Shown: one piece after another, positions 16,970 through 54,225 of the stretch
Layout of the letters: every line of letters begins with the position of its first letter
Position numbering within the stretch: the first letter of the stretch is position 1
From: Minisyncoccota bacterium
GTDB taxonomy: Bacteria; Patescibacteriota; Minisyncoccia; UBA6257; UBA9933
Assembly: GCA_041650415.1 (NCBI GenBank)
Contig: JBAZLC010000003.1
Coordinates: 2,033-66,032 of the forward strand
Direction of reading: 5' to 3'
Length of the DNA: 64,000 nt
Program-made: the position numbers and the translations under genes
Notes under the pieces: model-generated
Told to the model about the DNA's origin: nothing
Seen by the model: the letters and a program-made list of their open reading frames with translations, nothing else
Databases searched by the model: none

Positions 16970-17692
16970 ATGAAAATACATTTATCCGTAATTATTCCGG
17001 CGTATAACGAGGCAAAGAGAATATCTCCGGCCTTAATTGATATAGATAAATATTTTAAAAACGTGGATTACGACTACGAAATTATCGTTGTCGATAATAA
17101 TTCGACCGATGCCACAAAAGAAGTCATTGAAAGACTTTCTCATATTATTAAGAATTTAAGAATGATTGAATGCAAAACTCCGGGCAAAGGCGCGGCGGTT
17201 CAAGCGGGCATGCTTAACGCCAAAGGTGAATACAGATTATTCATAGATGCGGATGGTGCCATTAAAATAGACCACCTTGATAAATTCTGGCCGTATTTAA
17301 AACAGGGTTACGATATTGTTATTGGCTCAATAGAATTAAAAGACGCGAAAATAGTGGAACATGACGCGGGGTACCGCAGATTACTCGGTAAACTGGCGAA
17401 ATATTTGATAAGAGCTTTGACTATTTGGGAAATTCATGACACCCAAAGAGCATTCAAACTTTTTCCGGCAGAAGCCGCCGAAAAAATATTTTCCCGCCAA
17501 ACGGTTATGAAGTGGCTGTTTGATATAGAAATTCTGATTCTTGCCAAAAAAATGGGGTACAAGATAAAAGAAATTCCGGTCACCTGGATAAATCCGGCGG
17601 AGAGTAAAGTGGTTTTTGCGGATTACTTTCGCTCACTGAAAGAGCTTTTCAAAATAAAATGGAGATTAATAACGGGAAAATATAATATATGA
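16970..17692 (+). CDS. Family 2 glycosyltransferase (DPM1/dolichyl-phosphate sugar transferase-like)
   Basis: VIIPAYNE...VVDNNSTD...DADG motifs of GT-A GT2 enzymes. Confidence 0.75.
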   Translation: MKIHLSVIIPAYNEAKRISPALIDIDKYFKNVDYDYEIIVVDNNSTDATKEVIERLSHIIKNLRMIECKTPGKGAAVQAGMLNAKGEYRLFIDADGAIKIDHLDKFWPYLKQGYDIVIGSIELKDAKIVEHDAGYRRLLGKLAKYLIRALTIWEIHDTQRAFKLFPAEAAEKIFSRQTVMKWLFDIEILILAKKMGYKIKEIPVTWINPAESKVVFADYFRSLKELFKIKWRLITGKYNI

Positions 17693-19401: not shown

Positions 19402-20244
19402 ATGACTCCCCATACCTATATCAATTTTGATAAAAAATATAAAAAGGAAGACCAAAAATTTAGGAAGTATAAAATTATCGCCGCAGTGGCGGGTTTTTTG
19501 ATTTTACTTGGCGGATTTTTTTATGCGGTTGTTTATTCACCCTTATTCCAAGTAATAAAGATTAACGTTGATAATCCGTTGGTTGACGGTGATTTTGCGA
19601 ATAATTTGAAAGATTTTTTCGTAAATCAGTCTAAATTCACCAAATTTCTTGGTCCGGATAATATTTTAATTTGGAATGGAAATAAATTGGAGAAATTTGA
19701 AAAAGATCCGGAGATCGCCGAGATAAGCCTTAAAAAAGATTACGCGGAAAGGACGATAGAGATTAACGTTAAATTACGGGAAAGATTCGGAGTGTGGTGC
19801 CAAAATAGCCAACAAGTGAATACCTCAAGCACCGAACAGCAAGTGGCAGAGTCTTGTTGGTGGTTTGATAAAGACGGCGTTCTTTTTGCAGCAGCGCCGG
19901 AACTTGAAGGAAATGCAATAAACAAGGTTGATGATTTTTCCGGCAGAGATTTGATGTTAGGTGGTTCGGCACTCGATGAAAGATTTATTTCTAATTTAAC
20001 CGGAATTTTCGGGGTTTTGGAAAAATCCGGTCTTGGCATACGGGCTTTAAAACTGGAAAATCTTGCTCTTCAGGAAATTGTTTTCGATCAGCCACAAACC
20101 TCTTTACCGAAAATATATTTTAGTTTGCGGGAAAATCCGGAATTTACTCTGGCGGCGATTAACGACTTAAAAAAAATCGGCCTGGAAAAAATAGCCTATA
20201 TCGATTTAAGAGTGGGGAATAGGGTGTACTACAAGCTTAGATAA
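19402..20244 (+). CDS. FtsQ/DivIB-like cell division protein (N-terminal TM plus POTRA-like domain)
   Basis: Cytoplasmic basic N-terminus, one TM, then FQVIKINVDNP and a C-terminal IDLRVGNRVYYKL resembling FtsQ. The call is by pattern, not a strong match. Confidence 0.5.
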   Translation: MTPHTYINFDKKYKKEDQKFRKYKIIAAVAGFLILLGGFFYAVVYSPLFQVIKINVDNPLVDGDFANNLKDFFVNQSKFTKFLGPDNILIWNGNKLEKFEKDPEIAEISLKKDYAERTIEINVKLRERFGVWCQNSQQVNTSSTEQQVAESCWWFDKDGVLFAAAPELEGNAINKVDDFSGRDLMLGGSALDERFISNLTGIFGVLEKSGLGIRALKLENLALQEIVFDQPQTSLPKIYFSLRENPEFTLAAINDLKKIGLEKIAYIDLRVGNRVYYKLR

Positions 20245-20313
20245 TTGGTGAATTGGTGAATTAGTTTTAAAACCAATTACCAAATTATCTAATTAACTAA
20301 TTATCCAATAAGC
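20245..20313. terminator. AT-rich convergent-junction hairpin (probable bidirectional terminator) carrying a 23-bp motif also found at 13258-13280
   Basis: TTGGTGAATTGGTGAATTAG...CCAATTACCAA inverted repeat, with AATTATCTAATTAACTAATTATC identical to the rplR-rpsE spacer. Confidence 0.35.
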
Positions 20314-21498
20314 TTACTTAGTCGCGTTATATATCGCCTGAATTTCGGCGGCTGAAAGCGCGCGGTTGTAAATGCGAACGTCGTCAATAAAGCCCGAAAA
20401 ATAGGCAGATGATGAATGTAGACATCCAGCATACCAATTTAAAAAAGTGGCCGAAAAAGGCGTTGTATGATTTCCTGAATTAACCTGAACGCCATTTAGA
20501 AAAACATATAATTTTTGCGAATCGCCCTTGCCAACAATATAATTCCATTGATTAGGAATAACAGTTCCTCCGGTTATAGCTCCTGTTTGTGCTCTGGTTA
20601 AAATAATCGCTCCTGAATTTACACCCAAATAATCATCTTTAAGGGCTTGTCGTCCAATTGCCGCTCCACTTGTAACAGATGTTGGATATATCCAGACAGA
20701 CCACGTAAAATTATATGTGTTTGAAAGTGGTATTGGTTCTCTATTTGTGCCAACTCTTTGAGTTGTTCCGTTAAAACTTAGCGCATAACTTCCGACTTTG
20801 CCTGTTGTATATGCAGGCCCATTCGTAAGAGTCCCATTATTTCCATTCCCACTCGAATCATATGCGGTAGTTCCGGAACCTTCATCAAACTTCCAATAGC
20901 CTACAAGTCCCATATCTCTCAATCCGGGAGTAAGAGACACATTAGTGCCGATAGAATAGACTCCGGGATAAGCATCGCCGTCTTTTATCGCAATATCTTG
21001 GTATTTAGTAGTTTCAAATAAAGCGGTTAAGCTCCAAGAGCCTCCCGTGACATATGTATAGTAATTTCCGGTACTTGTGGTATTTATAGGGTCTGCAGGC
21101 AAAGAACTCAAAGGATTGGTAAATGAAATATCGGAGAAATGAACCGGTATCCATCCCGTGCCATCGGTTTTTCTGTAGTTTGTTGAGTTGGAACAAGCAT
21201 AACTCCAGCCTGTAGGTAGAATAGGAAGTCCTAAATTGGCGCAGGTAGCCGAAGAATCGGGAATAGAGACGTATACTGTGTTTATAGAACCTATACTTGT
21301 GCCTCCATCGGCTTGATACAATCCTATAGCGCTATGAATTGTCTGCAGGTCCGACATTCTTGTTGAATCTCTGGCTGATCTCATCTGTTCTGCCGGATTT
21401 ATCGTTATTACCACTACTGCGGACAATATGGCTAAGACTGCGATGACTATGACAAGTTCAATTAATGTGAAGGAGTTAGGCCTGCTAATATTTCTCAT
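20314..21498 (-). CDS. Type IV pilin-like protein: N-terminal prepilin cleavage/methylation helix plus C-terminal LamG/concanavalin-A-like lectin domain
   Basis: N-terminus is MRNISRPNSFTLIELVIVIAVLAIL (class III signal/pilin helix). C-terminus has VGYWKFDEGSGTTAYDSSGNGNNGTL...IDDVRIYNRALSAAEI, a classic LamG_3 pattern. Confidence 0.8.
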   Translation of the reverse strand: MRNISRPNSFTLIELVIVIAVLAILSAVVVITINPAEQMRSARDSTRMSDLQTIHSAIGLYQADGGTSIGSINTVYVSIPDSSATCANLGLPILPTGWSYACSNSTNYRKTDGTGWIPVHFSDISFTNPLSSLPADPINTTSTGNYYTYVTGGSWSLTALFETTKYQDIAIKDGDAYPGVYSIGTNVSLTPGLRDMGLVGYWKFDEGSGTTAYDSSGNGNNGTLTNGPAYTTGKVGSYALSFNGTTQRVGTNREPIPLSNTYNFTWSVWIYPTSVTSGAAIGRQALKDDYLGVNSGAIILTRAQTGAITGGTVIPNQWNYIVGKGDSQKLYVFLNGVQVNSGNHTTPFSATFLNWYAGCLHSSSAYFSGFIDDVRIYNRALSAAEIQAIYNATK

Positions 21499-21501
21499 TG
21501 C

Positions 21502-23382
21502 TTACAATTTATAAATAAATATCGAAGTTCCCGCTTTATAGTCGGGTTGATAAGGATTTTTAATTTTTTGGAGCCATTGATATTCGTCTTCCGGATTTCG
21601 CTGCTGGCCTGGAACGAGTTTGCCTAAATTATTTTGGAGATTATTTATTGAAACCGCGAGCCAATGAATGCCGACATCGGCCGGATTGCCCTTGGAAGAT
21701 CTCCAATCTTCAAATTTATCATCTAAATAATAACTCGGGCTTCCTCCGCCAAAATATTCAACCGCGATTTTATCTACTTCTTGCGCCGCGACAAAATTTT
21801 TGAGTTTAATCAAATCTTGTCCCCAGTCGTAGTTTGAATCGGTTACGTATTGATAACCGTTTTTAGTTCCGCCGCCTAATTCGTTAAAGAATGAAAGAAA
21901 ATTTGGAGCGACAAGCAAAGTTTCGGCAAAATACCAAATGACGATCGCGCCGACAAAAACTCCTTTAATGGAAATTTTCAAAATATCGTTTTTAAAACTT
22001 TTAATTTTCGATTCAAAGCCTTCTCTTTGGTTTGAGCTGCCGTTATTAAACCATCTTTTGATTCCCGACGCGGCCAAAATGTAAATAAAAGGCAGAGTTG
22101 GAAGAATATGCCGGACGCCGATATTTAACGGGCTTTTCATGCTATAAGCCCAATAAAATATTACAAAAAATATCATTGAGAACTCGGCAAAATGCGTGCT
22201 TAGATAATTCAAAAAATTAATTTTGATACTTGATACTTGATACTTGATACTTTTGAAAATGTGCCAAATAGACACTATAAACGACAGAGCTATTAAAATT
22301 AATGAAGCGATTTGCTCTTTTAGCGCGAAAACAACGGGGAAGTAATACCACCAGCCTGCGGCTGAAACTTCGCCTAAGAAATAAGACGTGTTTCCTCCCG
22401 ATGAGCGTTGAAACACCATCAAAACTCCAAGTATGTATTCTCCAAGCGGCCGCAGAATTTTATTCCCCGCCATCATAATATTTAAATCGGCTATACATCT
22501 TATTCCTTTGCAGTTTTGTAACCCCCCGTCATTTCCGCCGGCGAAAGAAGTAAGTGTGAATTGGGTGTCTAAAATTTGTTTTTCAATGGGGTAATTCATG
22601 GTAAAGAGGAAATAAACGCCATAAACCAAAACATAGCCGATTATGAAAATAACTCCGGTCGCGAAAATATATTTCAACAGAGAAATGAATTTTTTCTCGC
22701 GCAAGACGAAAAGCGAAAAAATTATAATTAGAATTCCGAAAAAGGGGACGAGCAGAACGGCGGAAAATTTCATAAGTTGGGCGATGCCAAAAGCTATTCC
22801 CGCCCAAACAAAATTCTTTTTATTCGTGTTTAAGAGAAATTTTACAAAATAATAAGTCGCCGCGAATATTCCCAGTGCCGCGCCCAAATCGGTCGTTACA
22901 TAGTGACCGTGAGCCAGAACCGTGGGCGACATGGCGAAAAGAAAAGTCGGTAAAAGCGCCCACCAGCGGCCGATCAATTCCTTGGACCAGATAAAAATAA
23001 ATAGTATTAAAATAAGCGTTAATAATATTGGTCCAAAACGGGAAGTTTGGACTATTTGGTCGGCGTTATTGTCTGATTCGTAAAGGAATTGCGTTCCGGC
23101 CGCCCACTGGCCGTTAACATCGCTTTGCCACGCGGATTTATCGGTTGGGAAATTGAGATTTTCAAAAAGTAGCGGCAGAGCGGCTATGACTTTAATCAGT
23201 GGGGGATGCTCGGGGTTCAAACGGTAATCAAAATATTTTACATAACCGTAGCCTGCCGGAATATGCGCGAGTTCGTCCATAATCGCGGATTCTTGGCTTG
23301 AAGAATAAAGCATTAAACTGAAAGAAGACGCTATAATCAGAAAAGTAAAAGCCCATGGGAAAATTTTATTAATATTTATCAT
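21502..23382 (-). CDS. GT-C fold glycosyltransferase of the PMT/ArnT (GT39/GT83-like) family, 626 aa, multi-pass membrane
   Basis: An N-terminal DELAHIPAGYGY...RLNPEHPPL motif typical of PMT_2/ArnT transferases, with >10 TM helices. The gene is 4 bp upstream of the pilin gene and co-oriented. Confidence 0.7.
   Translation of the reverse strand: MININKIFPWAFTFLIIASSFSLMLYSSSQESAIMDELAHIPAGYGYVKYFDYRLNPEHPPLIKVIAALPLLFENLNFPTDKSAWQSDVNGQWAAGTQFLYESDNNADQIVQTSRFGPILLTLILILFIFIWSKELIGRWWALLPTFLFAMSPTVLAHGHYVTTDLGAALGIFAATYYFVKFLLNTNKKNFVWAGIAFGIAQLMKFSAVLLVPFFGILIIIFSLFVLREKKFISLLKYIFATGVIFIIGYVLVYGVYFLFTMNYPIEKQILDTQFTLTSFAGGNDGGLQNCKGIRCIADLNIMMAGNKILRPLGEYILGVLMVFQRSSGGNTSYFLGEVSAAGWWYYFPVVFALKEQIASLILIALSFIVSIWHIFKSIKYQVSSIKINFLNYLSTHFAEFSMIFFVIFYWAYSMKSPLNIGVRHILPTLPFIYILAASGIKRWFNNGSSNQREGFESKIKSFKNDILKISIKGVFVGAIVIWYFAETLLVAPNFLSFFNELGGGTKNGYQYVTDSNYDWGQDLIKLKNFVAAQEVDKIAVEYFGGGSPSYYLDDKFEDWRSSKGNPADVGIHWLAVSINNLQNNLGKLVPGQQRNPEDEYQWLQKIKNPYQPDYKAGTSIFIYKL
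22223..22250. repeat. Perfect heptanucleotide tandem repeat (TTGATAC)x4 inside the GT-C CDS
   Basis: TTGATACTTGATACTTGATACTTGATAC, read by eye; it encodes SIKYQVSSIKI in the minus-strand frame. Confidence 0.8.
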
Positions 23383-23571
23383 AAGGTCGCAAATTAATTA
23401 ATATTTTTATTTAATAAATCAAATTTCAATAAAATTCTATAAAAATTCTTTTAAAAAGTTATTAACATTTTAAGTATAACAAATTTGTTGTAAAATTAGA
23501 ATATAGGTAAGTTGATAAGTTAAAAATTAAATTAATCTTAAAGGTCGAAAAATTAATTAATAAAAAATAAA

Positions 23572-23691
23572 ATGGTTAAGAAAAAAGTAAAAAAAGCGTC
23601 AAAAAAAGTGAAGAAGGTAGCAAGAAAACCTTCTAAAAAGAAAGTGACCAAGAAAACAAAAAGGGCGGCTAAGAAAAAGAGCCGCAGATAA
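23572..23691 (+). CDS. Small lysine-rich basic protein (39 aa), hypothetical
   Basis: ATG...TAA ORF encoding MVKKKVKKASKKVKKVARKPSKKKVTKKTKRAAKKKSRR. It is not on the ORF track (<60 aa) and overlaps the next ORF by TAATG. Confidence 0.35.
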   Translation: MVKKKVKKASKKVKKVARKPSKKKVTKKTKRAAKKKSRR

Positions 23692-23996
23692 TGTATTTAA
23701 ACCCGCTTTGGACCAAGCATTCGGAGGCTAAGATGAGATTTCATGGCTTATCTAAGCAAAGGGTAAGGCGGGTTTTAAATTCTCCAAAAAGAATTGAAAC
23801 CGGCATAGCGCCGAATACGGTCGCGATGATGCAGGTTGCCGGAAGTAAAAAACACCCACATGAAATATGGGTGATGTTGCAAAAAAAGGCTAAGCAGACA
23901 AAAATAATTTCCGCCTGGCGGTATCCCGGGACAACCAAGCCCGGAGAACCATTGCCGGCGGAAATTATTTCGGAGATGGAGGAATCTTTACTTTAA
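23691..23996 (+). CDS. Hypothetical protein (101 aa)
   Basis: ORF with moderate complexity and no confident family assignment. Confidence 0.4.
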   Translation: MYLNPLWTKHSEAKMRFHGLSKQRVRRVLNSPKRIETGIAPNTVAMMQVAGSKKHPHEIWVMLQKKAKQTKIISAWRYPGTTKPGEPLPAEIISEMEESLL

Positions 23997-49948: not shown

Positions 49949-50011
49949 CCTGTCAGCAAACAGGGAGCATTTATTGCTTTATTTTACAACTAAACAAGGA
50001 GGTAAAAGGTT

Positions 50012-51316
50012 ATGTTAGCAAGAGAAAGGATTATCGTCGCGTTGGATGTTGGTGACATGGACAAGGCCTTGTTTTTTGTGAGCCTCCTCGCTTCCCGGGG
50101 AGTGTGTTTCAAGGTCGGACTAGAGCTCATAACTTCGGTTGGCGGGCCGGAAATCACCAAAACCATGAGTATGCTCAACGGCAGAGTTTTCTACGACGGG
50201 AAGTTCAATGACATTCCCAACACAATCGCCGGAGCCGCCAAAGCGGTCGCCAAGATGAAGGTGAAGATGTTCAATTTGCACGCTTCATCTGGCATCGAAG
50301 GCATGCGGGCGGCCGTGGCAAACAAAGGCCAGTCGCTTGTCCTGGCAGTGACCGTTCTCACCTCGCTTGAGGAGAACAATGCCCATCTGATTTTCGGCGC
50401 GCCGAGCAAGGCGAAAGTCTTGCAGTTCGCGCGCGACGCGAAACTCGCCGGCTGCGACGGCATCGTTTGCTCGCCGCAGGAACTCGAATTCCTCGCGAAG
50501 AACGACGAGGTCAAAAGCCTGCTTAAGGTCACGCCTGGAATCCGGGCATCCAATGCAGCGCCTGACGACCAGAAAAGGACTCTGACGCCGGAAGAGGCGG
50601 CATACAAGGGCGCGGATTTCCTGGTCATCGGACGACCCATCACGACCGCGAAAGACCCGGTTGAGGCGGTCCTGGAAATCTCGGCGGAAATCGCCAGAGG
50701 GCTGAAAAAGAAACTCCACATGCTTCTGTTCAATTCGCAGAAGATTAAGTTTGGGGCTTTCAAACTCAAACTTCATGAAGAGTTCCCCAATGCGCCGCTG
50801 TCGCCGATTTACATGGACATCAGGAACCTGTCCGAGCCAGCCTACGCGCTTATCGGAGATATCCTGCACGAATTCGTCGTGCGAAACGGCATCGAGTTCG
50901 ACTACGTCATCGGAATCCCGAAGGCGGGCGAACCCATCGGCCGCGCTCTGGCGAACGCAATCGGCAAACCGCTTCTGCGGATGGGAAAGATCGAAGACAA
51001 GGGCAGCCGGAAGATCTCGGCGAATATTCTCGACCAGTTCGAGCCGGGCAAACGCGTCATTTTGGTGGATGATGTTATCACTAAGGCGGACACCAAGAGA
51101 GAAGCCATTAACGCCGTGAAGGCAAACGGTCTCGAGGTGGCGGCCACTGTGGTGCTCTACGACCGGCAACAGGGCGGCCTGCATGACCTACTCAGTGAAG
51201 GCAATCACGCCTACGCCGTTACCACACTGGAAGACACTCTCAGTTTTCTCGTTAGTGAGAAGAAAATCTCCAGCGAGAAGATGGACGACGTCATGGCGTA
51301 CATAACCGCAAAATAG
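50012..51316 (+). CDS. Bifunctional orotidine-5'-phosphate decarboxylase (N-terminal) / orotate phosphoribosyltransferase (C-terminal) fusion
   Basis: N-terminal IIVALDV...KVGLEL...DGKFNDIPNT matches the PyrF type. The C-terminal PRTase motif VILVDDVITKADT with flanking IGIPKAGEPIG matches PyrE. The gene is ~55% GC with a canonical SD. Confidence 0.75.
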   Translation: MLARERIIVALDVGDMDKALFFVSLLASRGVCFKVGLELITSVGGPEITKTMSMLNGRVFYDGKFNDIPNTIAGAAKAVAKMKVKMFNLHASSGIEGMRAAVANKGQSLVLAVTVLTSLEENNAHLIFGAPSKAKVLQFARDAKLAGCDGIVCSPQELEFLAKNDEVKSLLKVTPGIRASNAAPDDQKRTLTPEEAAYKGADFLVIGRPITTAKDPVEAVLEISAEIARGLKKKLHMLLFNSQKIKFGAFKLKLHEEFPNAPLSPIYMDIRNLSEPAYALIGDILHEFVVRNGIEFDYVIGIPKAGEPIGRALANAIGKPLLRMGKIEDKGSRKISANILDQFEPGKRVILVDDVITKADTKREAINAVKANGLEVAATVVLYDRQQGGLHDLLSEGNHAYAVTTLEDTLSFLVSEKKISSEKMDDVMAYITAK

Positions 51317-51340
51317 GGAACTCGACAATTCCCAAAAACC

Positions 51341-51378
51341 AAAAAGCCCCGCAATTTGCATCGCGGGGCGTTTTTTTA
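51341..51378 (+). terminator. Intrinsic terminator (GCCCCGC...GCGGGGC plus TTTTTTT)
   Basis: AAAAAGCCCCGCAATTTGCATCGCGGGGCGTTTTTTTATC. Confidence 0.65.
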
Positions 51379-51387
51379 TCTAAAAAA

Positions 51388-51564
51388 TTATAATCCTAAA
51401 GCTCCAAGCGCTTTGTAAATCAGGAATGCCGGCCAAACAATGGCTTTTAATACGCCGAGGACTCCCATCCAGAATGTATCCGCGTGCTGGATGAAATAGA
51501 CCAAAGCGCCTATCAAGCCTAAGCCGTATATGGCGCCTGAAGCGCCGCCGCCAGAATGACACAT
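51388..51564 (-). CDS. Hypothetical small hydrophobic protein (58 aa, 2 TM)
   Basis: Minus-strand ATG...TAA ORF MCHSGGGASGAIYGLGLIGALVYFIQHADTFWMGVLGVLKAIVWPAFLIYKALGALGL. It is in a different frame from the low-complexity 60-aa ORF on the track. Confidence 0.35.
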   Translation of the reverse strand: MCHSGGGASGAIYGLGLIGALVYFIQHADTFWMGVLGVLKAIVWPAFLIYKALGALGL

Positions 51565-51607
51565 ATTTTAAATATATAAATAAATTAATTATTCGACCTT
51601 GTATTTA

Positions 51608-52348
51608 TTAATTTGATTTTACACGGAAGGTAATTAAATAATTTTCTTGCCCTATTGTCGCGCTTGCGACGCGTGAAGGTTTTACATTTTCGATAGAAAT
51701 TTGATATGAATCAAAAGCCACAGGTGGTTTATTTGAAGATACGTCTATCGTTTCTTTATCGGTATCACTTTCAAGCGTTATATTGGTTGTTACCCAGCCG
51801 GCCTGGATACATTTGACATCAATCGGGCAGCGGCTATCTTTGACTATTTTATTAAGCGTTATGCGAACGCCATTTATAAAAACGCTTTTTCTAATACTAA
51901 TTTCTCCAAGAGTCGGGTCGCCGGCATCTCCGGGAAGTTCTTCCAGACGGTCAACAGATAAAGTGGCGCCTTCGGTAAAGTTTCCAAATACTTGGACTTT
52001 TTGATTGATAAGCTGACCCACGACATTGCTTACTTTAATAATAAGTGGCATCGAATAAGCTACGTCTCCACCGCTGTTTTCAGGCGAACCGAGAATAAGA
52101 AAAAATCCGTCTCCCGTTTGTTTTAAAATTCCGGTAAACGACGGCTGATTAGGGCATGCTTTGAATTCGCATTTTGGTCCGGTTCTGCCGACATACGAAC
52201 CATCAGGGCAAATCAAAGCTTCTTGAGTGCAAAAAACTTGTTCGGGAACTTCGGATTTTTGATTAACAAACCAATAAACGCCGTAAGCGCCACCGCCGAT
52301 TATTACAATTGCGAGAATGCTAAAAATAATTTTTGTTTGAGTTTTCAT
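51608..52348 (-). CDS. Hypothetical secreted/membrane-anchored protein (246 aa)
   Basis: N-terminal TM/signal and a cysteine-containing extracytoplasmic domain; no family recognised. Confidence 0.45.
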   Translation of the reverse strand: MKTQTKIIFSILAIVIIGGGAYGVYWFVNQKSEVPEQVFCTQEALICPDGSYVGRTGPKCEFKACPNQPSFTGILKQTGDGFFLILGSPENSGGDVAYSMPLIIKVSNVVGQLINQKVQVFGNFTEGATLSVDRLEELPGDAGDPTLGEISIRKSVFINGVRITLNKIVKDSRCPIDVKCIQAGWVTTNITLESDTDKETIDVSSNKPPVAFDSYQISIENVKPSRVASATIGQENYLITFRVKSN

Positions 52349-53436: not shown

Positions 53437-53440
53437 TTTG

Positions 53441-53512
53441 CTGCGGGGCTAGGAATCGAACCTAGAACTTCAGATCCAGAGTCTGACGTGTTGCCAATTG
53501 CACCACCCCGCA
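53441..53512 (-). tRNA. tRNA-Gln (anticodon CTG)
   Basis: A manual cloverleaf from the reverse complement: acceptor TGCGGGG/CCCCGCA with a U1:A72 pair, U8, a short D-stem (GTG/CAC) and anticodon stem TCAGA/TCTGA. The anticodon loop is CTCTGGA with anticodon CUG. The T-stem is CTAGG/CCTAG with loop TTCGATT. The discriminator is G, and no CCA is encoded. Confidence 0.8.
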
Positions 53513-53523
53513 AGATTTAACTT

Positions 53524-54225
53524 TTAAAGATTATTATAATTCCGGAAATTTATCAAATTTTTAAACTCGTACACCTCTTTTTTTCTGGATATTTGAATTT
53601 TATATCTGCTTTTATTGGGCTTAAATCCTAATTTTTTTAAACTCGCATATACAATATTAAGCAGGGAAGTATTTTTATTTGAGAAGAAAATTTTATATGT
53701 GCTCGTAGGCAGATGAACGCAAAAACTTCCCTCGGCTTCATATAGACCTCTTAAAAAACTTACCAAATAGTCGTTATTTTCACAAATCCATTTCGGTAGT
53801 TTAAAATTTAATTTAGCGCGGTTTCCGCTTGGAATCCCTAATCTTTTACTGACAAATTTTTCGTAAACGCTTATTTTTACGCAATTTGAATTTTTAACTT
53901 TCATATAGGTCGGTTTTTTAGAGAAAATCTTCTCAATAATACCGCCGTATCTATTTATAAATCCTTTATTTTTGGAATTGCACGAAATTATAAGCCGTTC
54001 GGTTCGCGGGAATTTACCGATATGTCCATCTCCAAGTACAACACCGACTAATTCCGCCAGATATTTATCTTTTTTAAAATCCGGGTAGTTGCTTTTAATT
54101 TTACCTGCGGCCTTCATTTTGTCCGCCCATTTTTTGAAATTGTTAATTTTCTTCCGCTTAAAAGTTTCGGAGATTTTCTTTACGCTTGGATGCGTTTCTT
54201 TTGTAAGCCCCTTATTCCATGGCAT
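53524..54225 (-). CDS. Free-standing double-motif LAGLIDADG homing endonuclease
   Basis: Two LAGLIDADG motifs, LAELVGVVLGDGHI and LVSFLRGLYEAEGSF, in a 233-aa protein wedged between dnaX and tRNA-Gln. Confidence 0.75.
   Translation of the reverse strand: MPWNKGLTKETHPSVKKISETFKRKKINNFKKWADKMKAAGKIKSNYPDFKKDKYLAELVGVVLGDGHIGKFPRTERLIISCNSKNKGFINRYGGIIEKIFSKKPTYMKVKNSNCVKISVYEKFVSKRLGIPSGNRAKLNFKLPKWICENNDYLVSFLRGLYEAEGSFCVHLPTSTYKIFFSNKNTSLLNIVYASLKKLGFKPNKSRYKIQISRKKEVYEFKNLINFRNYNNL

Follow-up and report, generated by a model that had tools for sequence, protein, structure and literature searches.

A probable lineage-specific insertion places a LamG-type prepilin gene behind a core glycosyltransferase gene in Candidatus Paceibacterota

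Overview

Two adjacent genes of a Candidatus Paceibacterota (Patescibacteria) metagenome-assembled genome are the subject of this analysis. They lie on a stretch of 64,000 nucleotides, referred to here as the window. The first gene (21502–23382, minus strand; taken from the list of open reading frames, ORFs) encodes a membrane glycosyltransferase of the GT-C type, 626 amino acids (aa) long and GT39/GT83-like by its Pfam matches to PMT_2 and PMT. The second (20314–21498, minus strand; from the same list) follows directly and encodes a modular type IV prepilin of 394 aa, in which an N_methyl segment is combined with a Laminin_G_3 domain. The pair most probably consists of two functionally independent genes that were joined by a lineage-specific insertion: a core envelope GT-C enzyme and an orphan type IV pilin of the lectin-type adhesin kind. 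As judged from gene order, their adjacency appears to be an accident, unique to this one genome among those compared. An earlier note, made from the sequence alone, had proposed either that the enzyme glycosylates the neighbouring pilin or that the pair represents an adhesive pilus. Its domain calls are upheld by Pfam and by structural models, and the adhesive pilus subunit is now the favoured reading. Glycosylation of the pilin by its neighbour is the part that synteny speaks against.

Gene order in relatives

The sample taken from the enzyme side comprised 80 loci, one per species, with orthologues of 40–82% identity and up to 8 kb of each flank. All ORFs of these loci, whose flanks total 1.1 Mb, were searched with the window pilin. 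A LamG pilin adjacent to and co-oriented with the GT-C gene was found at none of the 80. The sole pilin match is a truncated N-terminus at locus L038, which lies 650 bp upstream of the enzyme gene and on the opposite strand. The closest relatives also carry no pilin beside the GT-C gene; these are L011, with an 82% identical enzyme, P0003 (83%), P0006 (78%) and P0008 (78%). When the neighbours are mapped onto the 80 loci, a conserved order emerges: secY, adk, map, a GT2 gene, greA, serS and a gene for a 280-aa protein, then the convergent GT-C gene, a 101-aa ORF and ychF. Synteny identifies the 280-aa membrane-anchored protein (19402–20244, plus strand) as the conserved convergent neighbour of the enzyme in relatives, where its homologue is about 290 aa long and present at 40 of the 80 loci. 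In close relatives, the stop codons of these two convergent genes are 34–133 bp apart (spacing read in L011, L084, L085 and L086–L088). The window differs from these relatives only by the pilin gene in the gap, which identifies that gene as a probable lineage-specific insertion between the GT-C gene and the 280-aa gene.

From the pilin side, four contexts of homologues with 47–54% identity were available on long contigs. One homologue follows rplJ/rplL (L082/083), a second lies between trmD and rpsB (L169), and a third is flanked by an aminoacyl-tRNA synthetase gene on one side and by recO and a large protein on the other (L170). In the fourth context (L081), a variable island, the neighbours include MazE, trypsin, NYN and RVT genes. 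None of the four adjoins this GT-C gene or pilus machinery. A PMT_2 gene located 2.1 kb from the pilins of the variable island was considered as a counterpart of the window enzyme and set aside: it is an unrelated paralogue, which BLASTP matches to that enzyme at E 0.22. A metagenome scan from the pilin side was dropped as a synteny sample, as its back-translated patterns were generic and picked up mostly unrelated pilin N-termini or LamG domains of 24–47% identity. The two genes are thus not conserved as neighbours in the 80 loci, the four close relatives or the four pilin-side contexts, and the idea of a dedicated GT-C/pilin module falls on the very observation that had been named in advance as counting against it. 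A glycosyltransferase gene kept beside the pilin gene across relatives, by which a pilin-dedicated glycosylation locus is recognized, was not found.

Further features of this neighbourhood vary among relatives. The 101-aa ORF (23691–23996), divergent from the GT-C gene, is present at 21 of the 80 loci; neither this ORF nor the 280-aa gene has a match in Pfam or NCBIfam. Some relatives carry a second, unrelated GT-C gene of the PMT_2 type near ychF (L086, 1–1228; L081, 2362–3873). On the ychF side of the window, a PAP2-family gene and two GT4 genes occupy the place of this second gene.

Junction and transcription

The two genes meet as TAA-gca-ATG. The trinucleotide GCA (21499–21501, minus strand) is the spacer that separates the stop codon of the GT-C gene from the start codon of the pilin gene, so that the ATG begins 4 bp past the last base of the stop codon, exactly as first described, and on the same strand. 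The spacer contains neither a terminator-like site nor a Shine–Dalgarno-like sequence, and RNA spanning the junction is no more stably folded than its shuffled counterparts (z +0.79). Beyond the pilin gene, RNA folding reveals an AT-rich inverted repeat in the 69-bp convergent gap between the pilin stop codon and that of the 280-aa gene (20245–20313). The hairpin has a folding energy of -18.2 kcal/mol (z -3.81), equalled by none of 200 shuffles, and is probably a bidirectional, terminator-like structure. Relatives have comparable AT-rich repeats immediately 3' of the GT-C stop codon. Because the junction is unstructured and the hairpin 3' of the pilin gene resembles these repeats, the insertion of the pilin gene apparently took place 5' of the old GT-C terminator.

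A transcript of both genes would likely start within the AT-rich region 5' of the GT-C gene (23383–23690, minus strand). A motif scan places promoter-like hexamers on the minus strand of this region at 23494–23467 (10 of 12 matches), 23429–23400 and 23392–23363, a number of sites that is not above shuffle expectation. Read-through from the GT-C promoter into the pilin gene is plausible. The co-transcription first proposed therefore stands to this extent, favoured by the 3-nt gap, the unstructured junction and a strong hairpin that occurs only after the pilin gene. Its value as a sign of shared function is lost, as read-through would result simply from the point at which the pilin gene was inserted. 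In composition (GC 0.415; GC at third codon positions, GC3, 0.324), considered as a possible sign of foreign origin, the pilin gene is lowest among its neighbours, yet unremarkable.

The GT-C enzyme

Within Paceibacteria, the enzyme belongs to the core proteins and is strongly conserved; its class is PMT_2 (GT39/GT83-like). The motif by which it was first recognized is present as MDELAHIPAGYGY and, further on, NPEHPPL, and the Pfam matches to PMT_2 (40.5 bits, cut-off 26.1) and PMT (35.9 bits, cut-off 22.7) clear their thresholds. Among 25 orthologues, no variation is seen at residues D36, E37, H40 and E58-H59-P60-P61-L62. The D36-E37 pair comes straight after the first transmembrane helix (TM1) and opens the first external loop. 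A soluble alpha/beta domain at the C-terminus (residues 515–626, approximately) carries a further invariant motif, DSNYDWGQD. Mean column identity among the orthologues is 63% across several candidate phyla. More than 3400 homologues exist, and the top 120 (56–83% identity) are all from Patescibacteria. A 100% identical protein is named 'glycosyltransferase family 39 protein' at NCBI, on the same 68-kb Candidatus Paceibacterota contig as the identical entry for the pilin; NCBIfam has no match for the enzyme, and literature searches returned nothing on this GT-C family in Parcubacteria.

The AlphaFold2 (AF2) model is a multi-helix membrane protein (pLDDT 80, pTM 0.85). Its Foldseek matches include ArnT (E 1.5e-6) and Pmt4 (TM-score 0.50/0.62), and STT3, AglB, ALG9 and PglB are also among them. 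When the GT-C alignment was used as a sequence profile against the PDB, no chain matched at E <= 0.01. No MIR domain was matched in Pfam, and the C-terminal alpha/beta domain is the only soluble one in the model, which separates the enzyme from the eukaryote-type PMT1/2/4 proteins. An N-oligosaccharyltransferase of the STT3/PglB/AglB type (GT66) was considered and rejected: there is no STT3 match in Pfam and no WWD. The nearest string to WWDxG is GWWYYFP at residues 343–349, in a membrane-proximal loop. The likeness to STT3 seen in the model is one of overall GT-C fold. The Wzy_C/O-antigen-ligase domain of PilO/PglL-type enzymes is absent from the Pfam search, in which PMT_2 and PMT are the only matches. 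Arabinosyltransferases of the Emb type match the model at E 0.2–0.9, as against 1e-6 for ArnT, so that the enzyme resembles neither PilO/PglL nor TfpW in type.

A candidate partner enzyme is encoded in the same conserved block, and is kept there in close relatives. This GT2 glycosyltransferase of 240 aa (16970–17692, plus strand; Pfam Glycos_transf_2, 102 bits) has near full-length, sub-threshold NCBIfam matches to dolichyl-phosphate hexose transferase (DPhHxTase), AglJ, PpgS and ArnC, and it may make the lipid-linked donor of the GT-C enzyme. The GT-C protein would take a sugar from a polyprenyl-phosphate carrier and transfer it at the outer face of the membrane by means of its invariant Asp-Glu pair, in the manner of ArnT and PMT. 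As acceptor, either a protein of the envelope or a glycopolymer is conceivable.

The modular pilin

Fusion of a prepilin N-terminal helix to a concanavalin-A-like (ConA)/LamG domain had been read from the sequence, and both expected Pfam families are indeed matched above their curated cut-offs. Laminin_G_3 covers residues 244–387 with 79.5 bits (cut-off 27.6, E 3.7e-22), and N_methyl reaches 26.0 bits (cut-off 21.2). NCBIfam adds TIGR02532 (17.8 bits, cut-off 16.3) and weak matches that include the GspG/GspH pseudopilins. The 100% identical NCBI entry is named 'LamG-like jellyroll fold domain-containing protein'. The best non-self match in the databases is 60% identical, with a LamG core that cannot be aligned.

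The N-terminus is a class III signal peptide. Its leader, MRNISRPNS, is 9 aa long and contains two Arg residues (21472–21498, minus strand). It is followed by FTLIELVIVIAVLAILSAVVVI (also given as FTLIELVIVIAVLAIL), with the predicted prepilin-peptidase site between Ser at -1 and FTLIELV. Phe stands at +1 and Glu at +5. These two residues, F10 and E14 of the precursor, are invariant in a 29-sequence alignment of the family, in which position -1 is mostly Ser, with some Gly and one Ala. The pilin module (residues 10–190; 20929–21471, minus strand) is delimited by alignment, conservation profile and AF2 secondary structure. Its alpha-1 helix is hydrophobic, and its head contains a nearly invariant C86, an invariant C102, a conserved DPxNTTSTGNYYTY motif and a conserved Ser/Thr-rich stretch, NTTSTGNYYTYVTGGS. 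A linker of residues 191–220 (20839–20928, minus strand) joins this module to the LamG domain. It is of low confidence in the AF2 model, with pLDDT below 50 at residues 192–208 and 214–219. The family-conserved motif GLVGYWKFDEGSGT... at residues 198–217, approximately, marks the N-terminal edge of the LamG domain.

Structure prediction by AlphaFold2, which the earlier note had recommended, agrees with this architecture (mean pLDDT 74). A long alpha-1 helix (residues 12–63, modelled as helices 12–33 and 35–63) precedes a beta-sheet head (74–184; strands 74–80, 99–103, 148–151, 155–160 and 180–184), the linker (190–220) and a jelly roll (220–394). With its long helix lying against a head of antiparallel strands, the model follows the fold of a type IV pilin, and the union of this fold with a ConA-like/LamG domain is that of a modular lectin pilin. 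Foldseek aligns the jelly roll with carbohydrate-binding and lectin-like domains at E 1e-11 to 1e-8. These include domain 4 of AbnA, which binds carbohydrate, the lectin-like Hc domains of tetanus and botulinum toxins, the lectin domain of trans-sialidase and pentraxin.

The gene is an orphan within the window. Pfam searches of the 60 principal ORFs, a motif scan and tblastn found a single prepilin motif in the 64 kb, with no second pilin and no copy or fragment of LamG. PilB/C/D/M-type genes were also not found there by the same three approaches (Pfam on 60 long-ORF proteins), and the window encodes no partner minor pilin.

A mechanism can be proposed from these features and from precedent. 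(i) The pilin gene, which came to lie immediately 3' of the GT-C stop codon, would be transcribed by read-through from the GT-C promoter. (ii) A prepilin peptidase encoded elsewhere would cut after Ser9 and methylate Phe10. (iii) Machinery that is also encoded elsewhere would assemble the alpha-1 helix and disulfide-bonded head into a type IV pilus. (iv) The LamG jelly roll, on its flexible linker, would be displayed as a lectin-type adhesin towards glycans on the surface of a host or partner, for which PilC and the TM7x pilins offer precedents. (v) The hypervariable core of that domain would set the specificity of the adhesin.

A mosaic family around a variable LamG core

The conservation profile reveals a hypervariable core within the LamG domain (residues 251–365, approximately; 20404–20748, minus strand). 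Column identity is 0.22–0.49 in the core versus 0.54–0.87 in residues 11–250 and 371–394. Among 120 pilin homologues (P0121–P0240), mean pairwise identity is 0.53 over residues 10–240, 0.15 in the core and 0.68 over the last 27 residues. Many pairs are 85–98% identical over the first 240 residues and 10–19% in the core. The histories of scaffold and core are discordant: P0145 and P0197 have cores that are 95% identical, and P0145 and P0146 are 97% identical in their scaffolds and 14% in their cores. The two paralogues of L081 (6001–7200 and 8040–9257), 840 bp apart, illustrate the pattern at the DNA level. They are 99.3% identical over 694 nt, including 83 nt of upstream sequence, have no DNA similarity in the core and are 90–92% identical at the 3' end.

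None of the 119 closest pilin relatives has a core more than 19% identical to that of the window pilin. Out of 1.84 billion representatives searched, P0361 and P0362 alone reach 50% identity to it. These are stand-alone LamG proteins of about 225 aa, 54–61% identical to the window core (20383–20793, residues 236–372). Their small-LamG family abounds on viral contigs of IMG/VR (loci L179, 2730–5696, and L255, 2556–5678). Its members are found there amid tail-fibre and tail proteins, and a related LamG domain forms the C-terminus of a 1040-aa protein encoded two genes after a tape-measure gene. LamG domains thus occur in phage tail modules at a receptor-binding position, which fits a ligand-recognition role for the module, and the core is predicted to set ligand specificity. 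It is conceivable, if on balance rather doubtful, that the core is a swappable specificity cassette. Recombination between the frame segments on either side (GYWKFDEGSGT... and ...IDDVRIYNRALSAAEI) would then exchange cores among paralogues and possibly with the small LamG proteins of phage tails. A diversity-generating retroelement was rejected as the source of variability, as whole cores are replaced, with indels, where such an element would leave point changes. The L081 pilins do have an RVT_1 gene in their vicinity; no reverse transcriptase is found among the annotated ORFs of the window. Literature searches returned nothing on mosaicism of LamG pilins in Patescibacteria.

Alternative explanations

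The best surviving alternative, itself unlikely, is a general O-glycosylation pathway in which the GT-C enzyme and the Dpm1/PpgS-like GT2 protein (16970–17692) modify many Paceibacteria surface proteins, pilins included, and adjacency to this particular pilin is again accidental. The PMT-family match and DE motif of the GT-C enzyme are consistent with such a pathway, as is the presence of a GT2 gene resembling polyprenyl-phosphate-sugar synthases in the same conserved block. Pilin O-glycosylation has moreover been predicted, not shown, in Saccharibacteria (PMC11623550), and literature searches turned up no experimental confirmation of it in Patescibacteria. Lipids and glycopolymers are, however, also modified by enzymes of the PMT_2/GT83-like kind, and ArnT is the best structural match of this one. 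Three unrelated housekeeping genes separate the GT2 gene from the GT-C gene.

The same explanation could draw on the fact that prepilin genes stand beside the GT-C gene in roughly three or more separate arrangements, and here a second type of prepilin has to be considered. A motif and HMM scan revealed a different prepilin-type gene of about 250 aa, with N_methyl and without LamG, divergently upstream of the GT-C gene at 8 of the 80 loci (L010, 7152–7925; L018, L022, L023, L033, L036, L040 and L047). The family is small, with about 135 database matches, and its gene always heads an hrcA-grpE-dnaK-dnaJ operon; that a pilin-like gene should lead a chaperone operon is odd in itself. Of the contexts fetched from within this family (L171–L175), two more have the GT-C gene alongside. 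Where the GT-C gene is absent (L173/L174) the prepilin gene stays, for example in the order serS, a gene like that at 19402, prepilin, hrcA. Since it heads the chaperone operon and persists without the enzyme gene, it travels with the operon and not with the enzyme, and was rejected as a link between pilins and the GT-C gene. In a rough neighbour-joining tree the eight loci do not group as one clade, which is compatible with one or several events. The recurring prepilin belongs to the conserved housekeeping block, and its position is at most a weak hint of association. It tracks the hrcA operon rather than the GT-C gene, which tells against general O-glycosylation.

A dedicated pilin-glycosylation module is distinctly less probable again. 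Under this hypothesis, the GT-C enzyme would O-glycosylate the pilin encoded downstream, as TfpW and TfpO do with PilA of Pseudomonas aeruginosa, and the genes would be co-transcribed for that reason. The 3-nt spacing, the common strand and the lack of a terminator between the genes speak for such a module, as does the conserved Ser/Thr-rich stretch of the pilin head. TfpW itself is a precedent for a GT-C enzyme encoded beside pilA (bioRxiv 10.1101/2020.04.19.049825). The pairing is nevertheless absent from the 80 orthologous loci and the four close relatives, and pilin homologues are scattered without the enzyme. A slowly evolving core enzyme is matched with a fast-evolving, mobile pilin. The fold of the enzyme is nearest to ArnT, PMT and STT3 (E 1e-6 to 1e-4), with the Emb types to which TfpW is compared at E 0.2–0.9, and a Wzy_C/O-antigen-ligase domain of the PilO/PglL type is lacking.

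Least probable of all is that the LamG protein is no pilus adhesin, and uses its prepilin signal only for export and membrane anchoring, in the way of a pseudopilin or a surface-displayed protein, with the LamG module in another role such as protein binding, nutrient capture or a phage decoy: the lack of pilus machinery or another pilin nearby, a length of 394 aa that is large for a filament subunit, the weak GspG/GspH pseudopilin matches in NCBIfam and the LamG relatives in phage tail modules would suit it, but the pilin head is complete, with conserved Cys residues, and Glu5 is invariant, as would be expected of a filament subunit, modular pilins of the same architecture are established pilus components elsewhere, and scattered pilin genes are normal in these genomes.

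The preferred reading, two independent genes joined by insertion, has points against it as well. Adhesin function and glycan ligands are deduced from fold and precedent, and pilins may still be among the substrates of the GT-C enzyme. The pilin module is full-sized, so that placement in the shaft rather than at the tip is possible. Ser9 (21472–21474) occupies position -1, as it does family-wide, where Gly is canonical, and cleavage at this site is a prediction only. Finally, prepilin-type genes adjoin the GT-C gene repeatedly, in the window, at L038 and at 8 of the 80 loci, and a loose association could underlie this recurrence.

Wider significance

The pair gives no grounds for a new pilin-glycosylation system, and adjacency of the two genes carries no functional signal. 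Each is an unremarkable member of a large Patescibacteria family that has been annotated before. The lesson to be drawn is that gene-dense small genomes scatter orphan pilins among housekeeping genes, where one insertion can give a tight, co-oriented junction. The conserved GT-C enzyme together with the nearby GT2 protein is a good candidate for envelope glycosylation in Paceibacteria. If cassette swapping occurs, it would re-target the pilus to new ligands on host surfaces, and the insertion beside the GT-C gene would be one snapshot of a mobile adhesin repertoire. A recombining hypervariable core with relatives in a phage-tail family, if confirmed, would bear on the question of how these episymbionts choose and switch hosts.

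Other features of the window

Two observations concern more distant parts of the window. Local GC content rises to 0.50 at 50001–52000, compared with 0.31–0.34 on either side. The spike coincides with an ORF that encodes a fused OMP-decarboxylase and phosphoribosyltransferase (50012–51316), for which a foreign origin is possible. Further along, a LAGLIDADG-domain ORF (53524–54225) directly adjoins a tRNA-Gln gene (53440–53512).

Comparison with known systems

The combination of N_methyl and LamG in one pilin is already described and common in these bacteria. N_methyl (IPR012902) with PF13385 is among the most frequent architectures of modular pilins, with representatives in Candidatus Wolfebacteria, Parcubacteria and Magasanikbacteria (PMC8179133). 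The best functional precedent is PilC of Streptococcus sanguinis, a demonstrated lectin whose ConA-like module binds glycans (PMC9934059). The window pilin shares with PilC a class III signal peptide and a pilin module linked to a concanavalin-A-like jelly roll. PilC differs in having an unusually short pilin moiety and an Ig-like module, and is encoded in a pil locus with its partner PilA (PMC9934059). The window protein has a full-sized module (about 180 aa, with a conserved Cys pair), no Ig module, an orphan gene and Ser at -1. The two are likened by architecture and not by orthology at the sequence level.

A patescibacterial parallel is provided by TM7x of the Saccharibacteria, in which the lectin-like minor pilins PilX1 and PilX2 are implicated in host binding and in recognition of cell-wall glycans (PMC11623550). 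These are likewise pilins with lectin-like domains at the C-terminus, and the same role is proposed for the window pilin. Their C-terminal folds are a CBM-like domain and a beta-propeller, whereas the window pilin has a LamG jelly roll. The minor-pilin genes of TM7x are located in pil loci and belong to a different phylum-level lineage; the likeness drawn here is one of architecture.

The GT-C enzyme finds its closest counterparts in the PMT/ArnT group (GT39/GT83, GT-C fold class A). It shares with them the Pfam PMT_2 and PMT matches, the DE motif after TM1 and the HPPL motif, and its best structural matches are ArnT (5F15/5EZM) and Pmt4 (9I5K). It departs from this group in lacking a MIR domain and a sequence-profile match in the PDB, and in its distinct C-terminal domain with invariant DSNYDWGQD and YFGGG motifs.

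The pilin glycosyltransferase TfpW remains the system that the gene pair most suggests at first sight. The gene tfpW reportedly lies next to pilA and requires D-arabinofuranose genes of its own. In the window, genes of the DprE1/E2 type were not seen. In the preprint that describes it, TfpW is a GT-C arabinosyltransferase of the group IV pilins of P. aeruginosa, and its gene is described as conserved among species that encode type IV pili (bioRxiv 10.1101/2020.04.19.049825). The shared traits are a multi-pass protein of GT-C type whose loop 1 is periplasmic and whose C-terminal domain is large, encoded beside a pilin gene. The window pair differs in that its adjacency occurs in one genome only, and in that the fold of its enzyme, compared with Emb types and not directly with the TfpW sequence, is nearer to ArnT, PMT and STT3.

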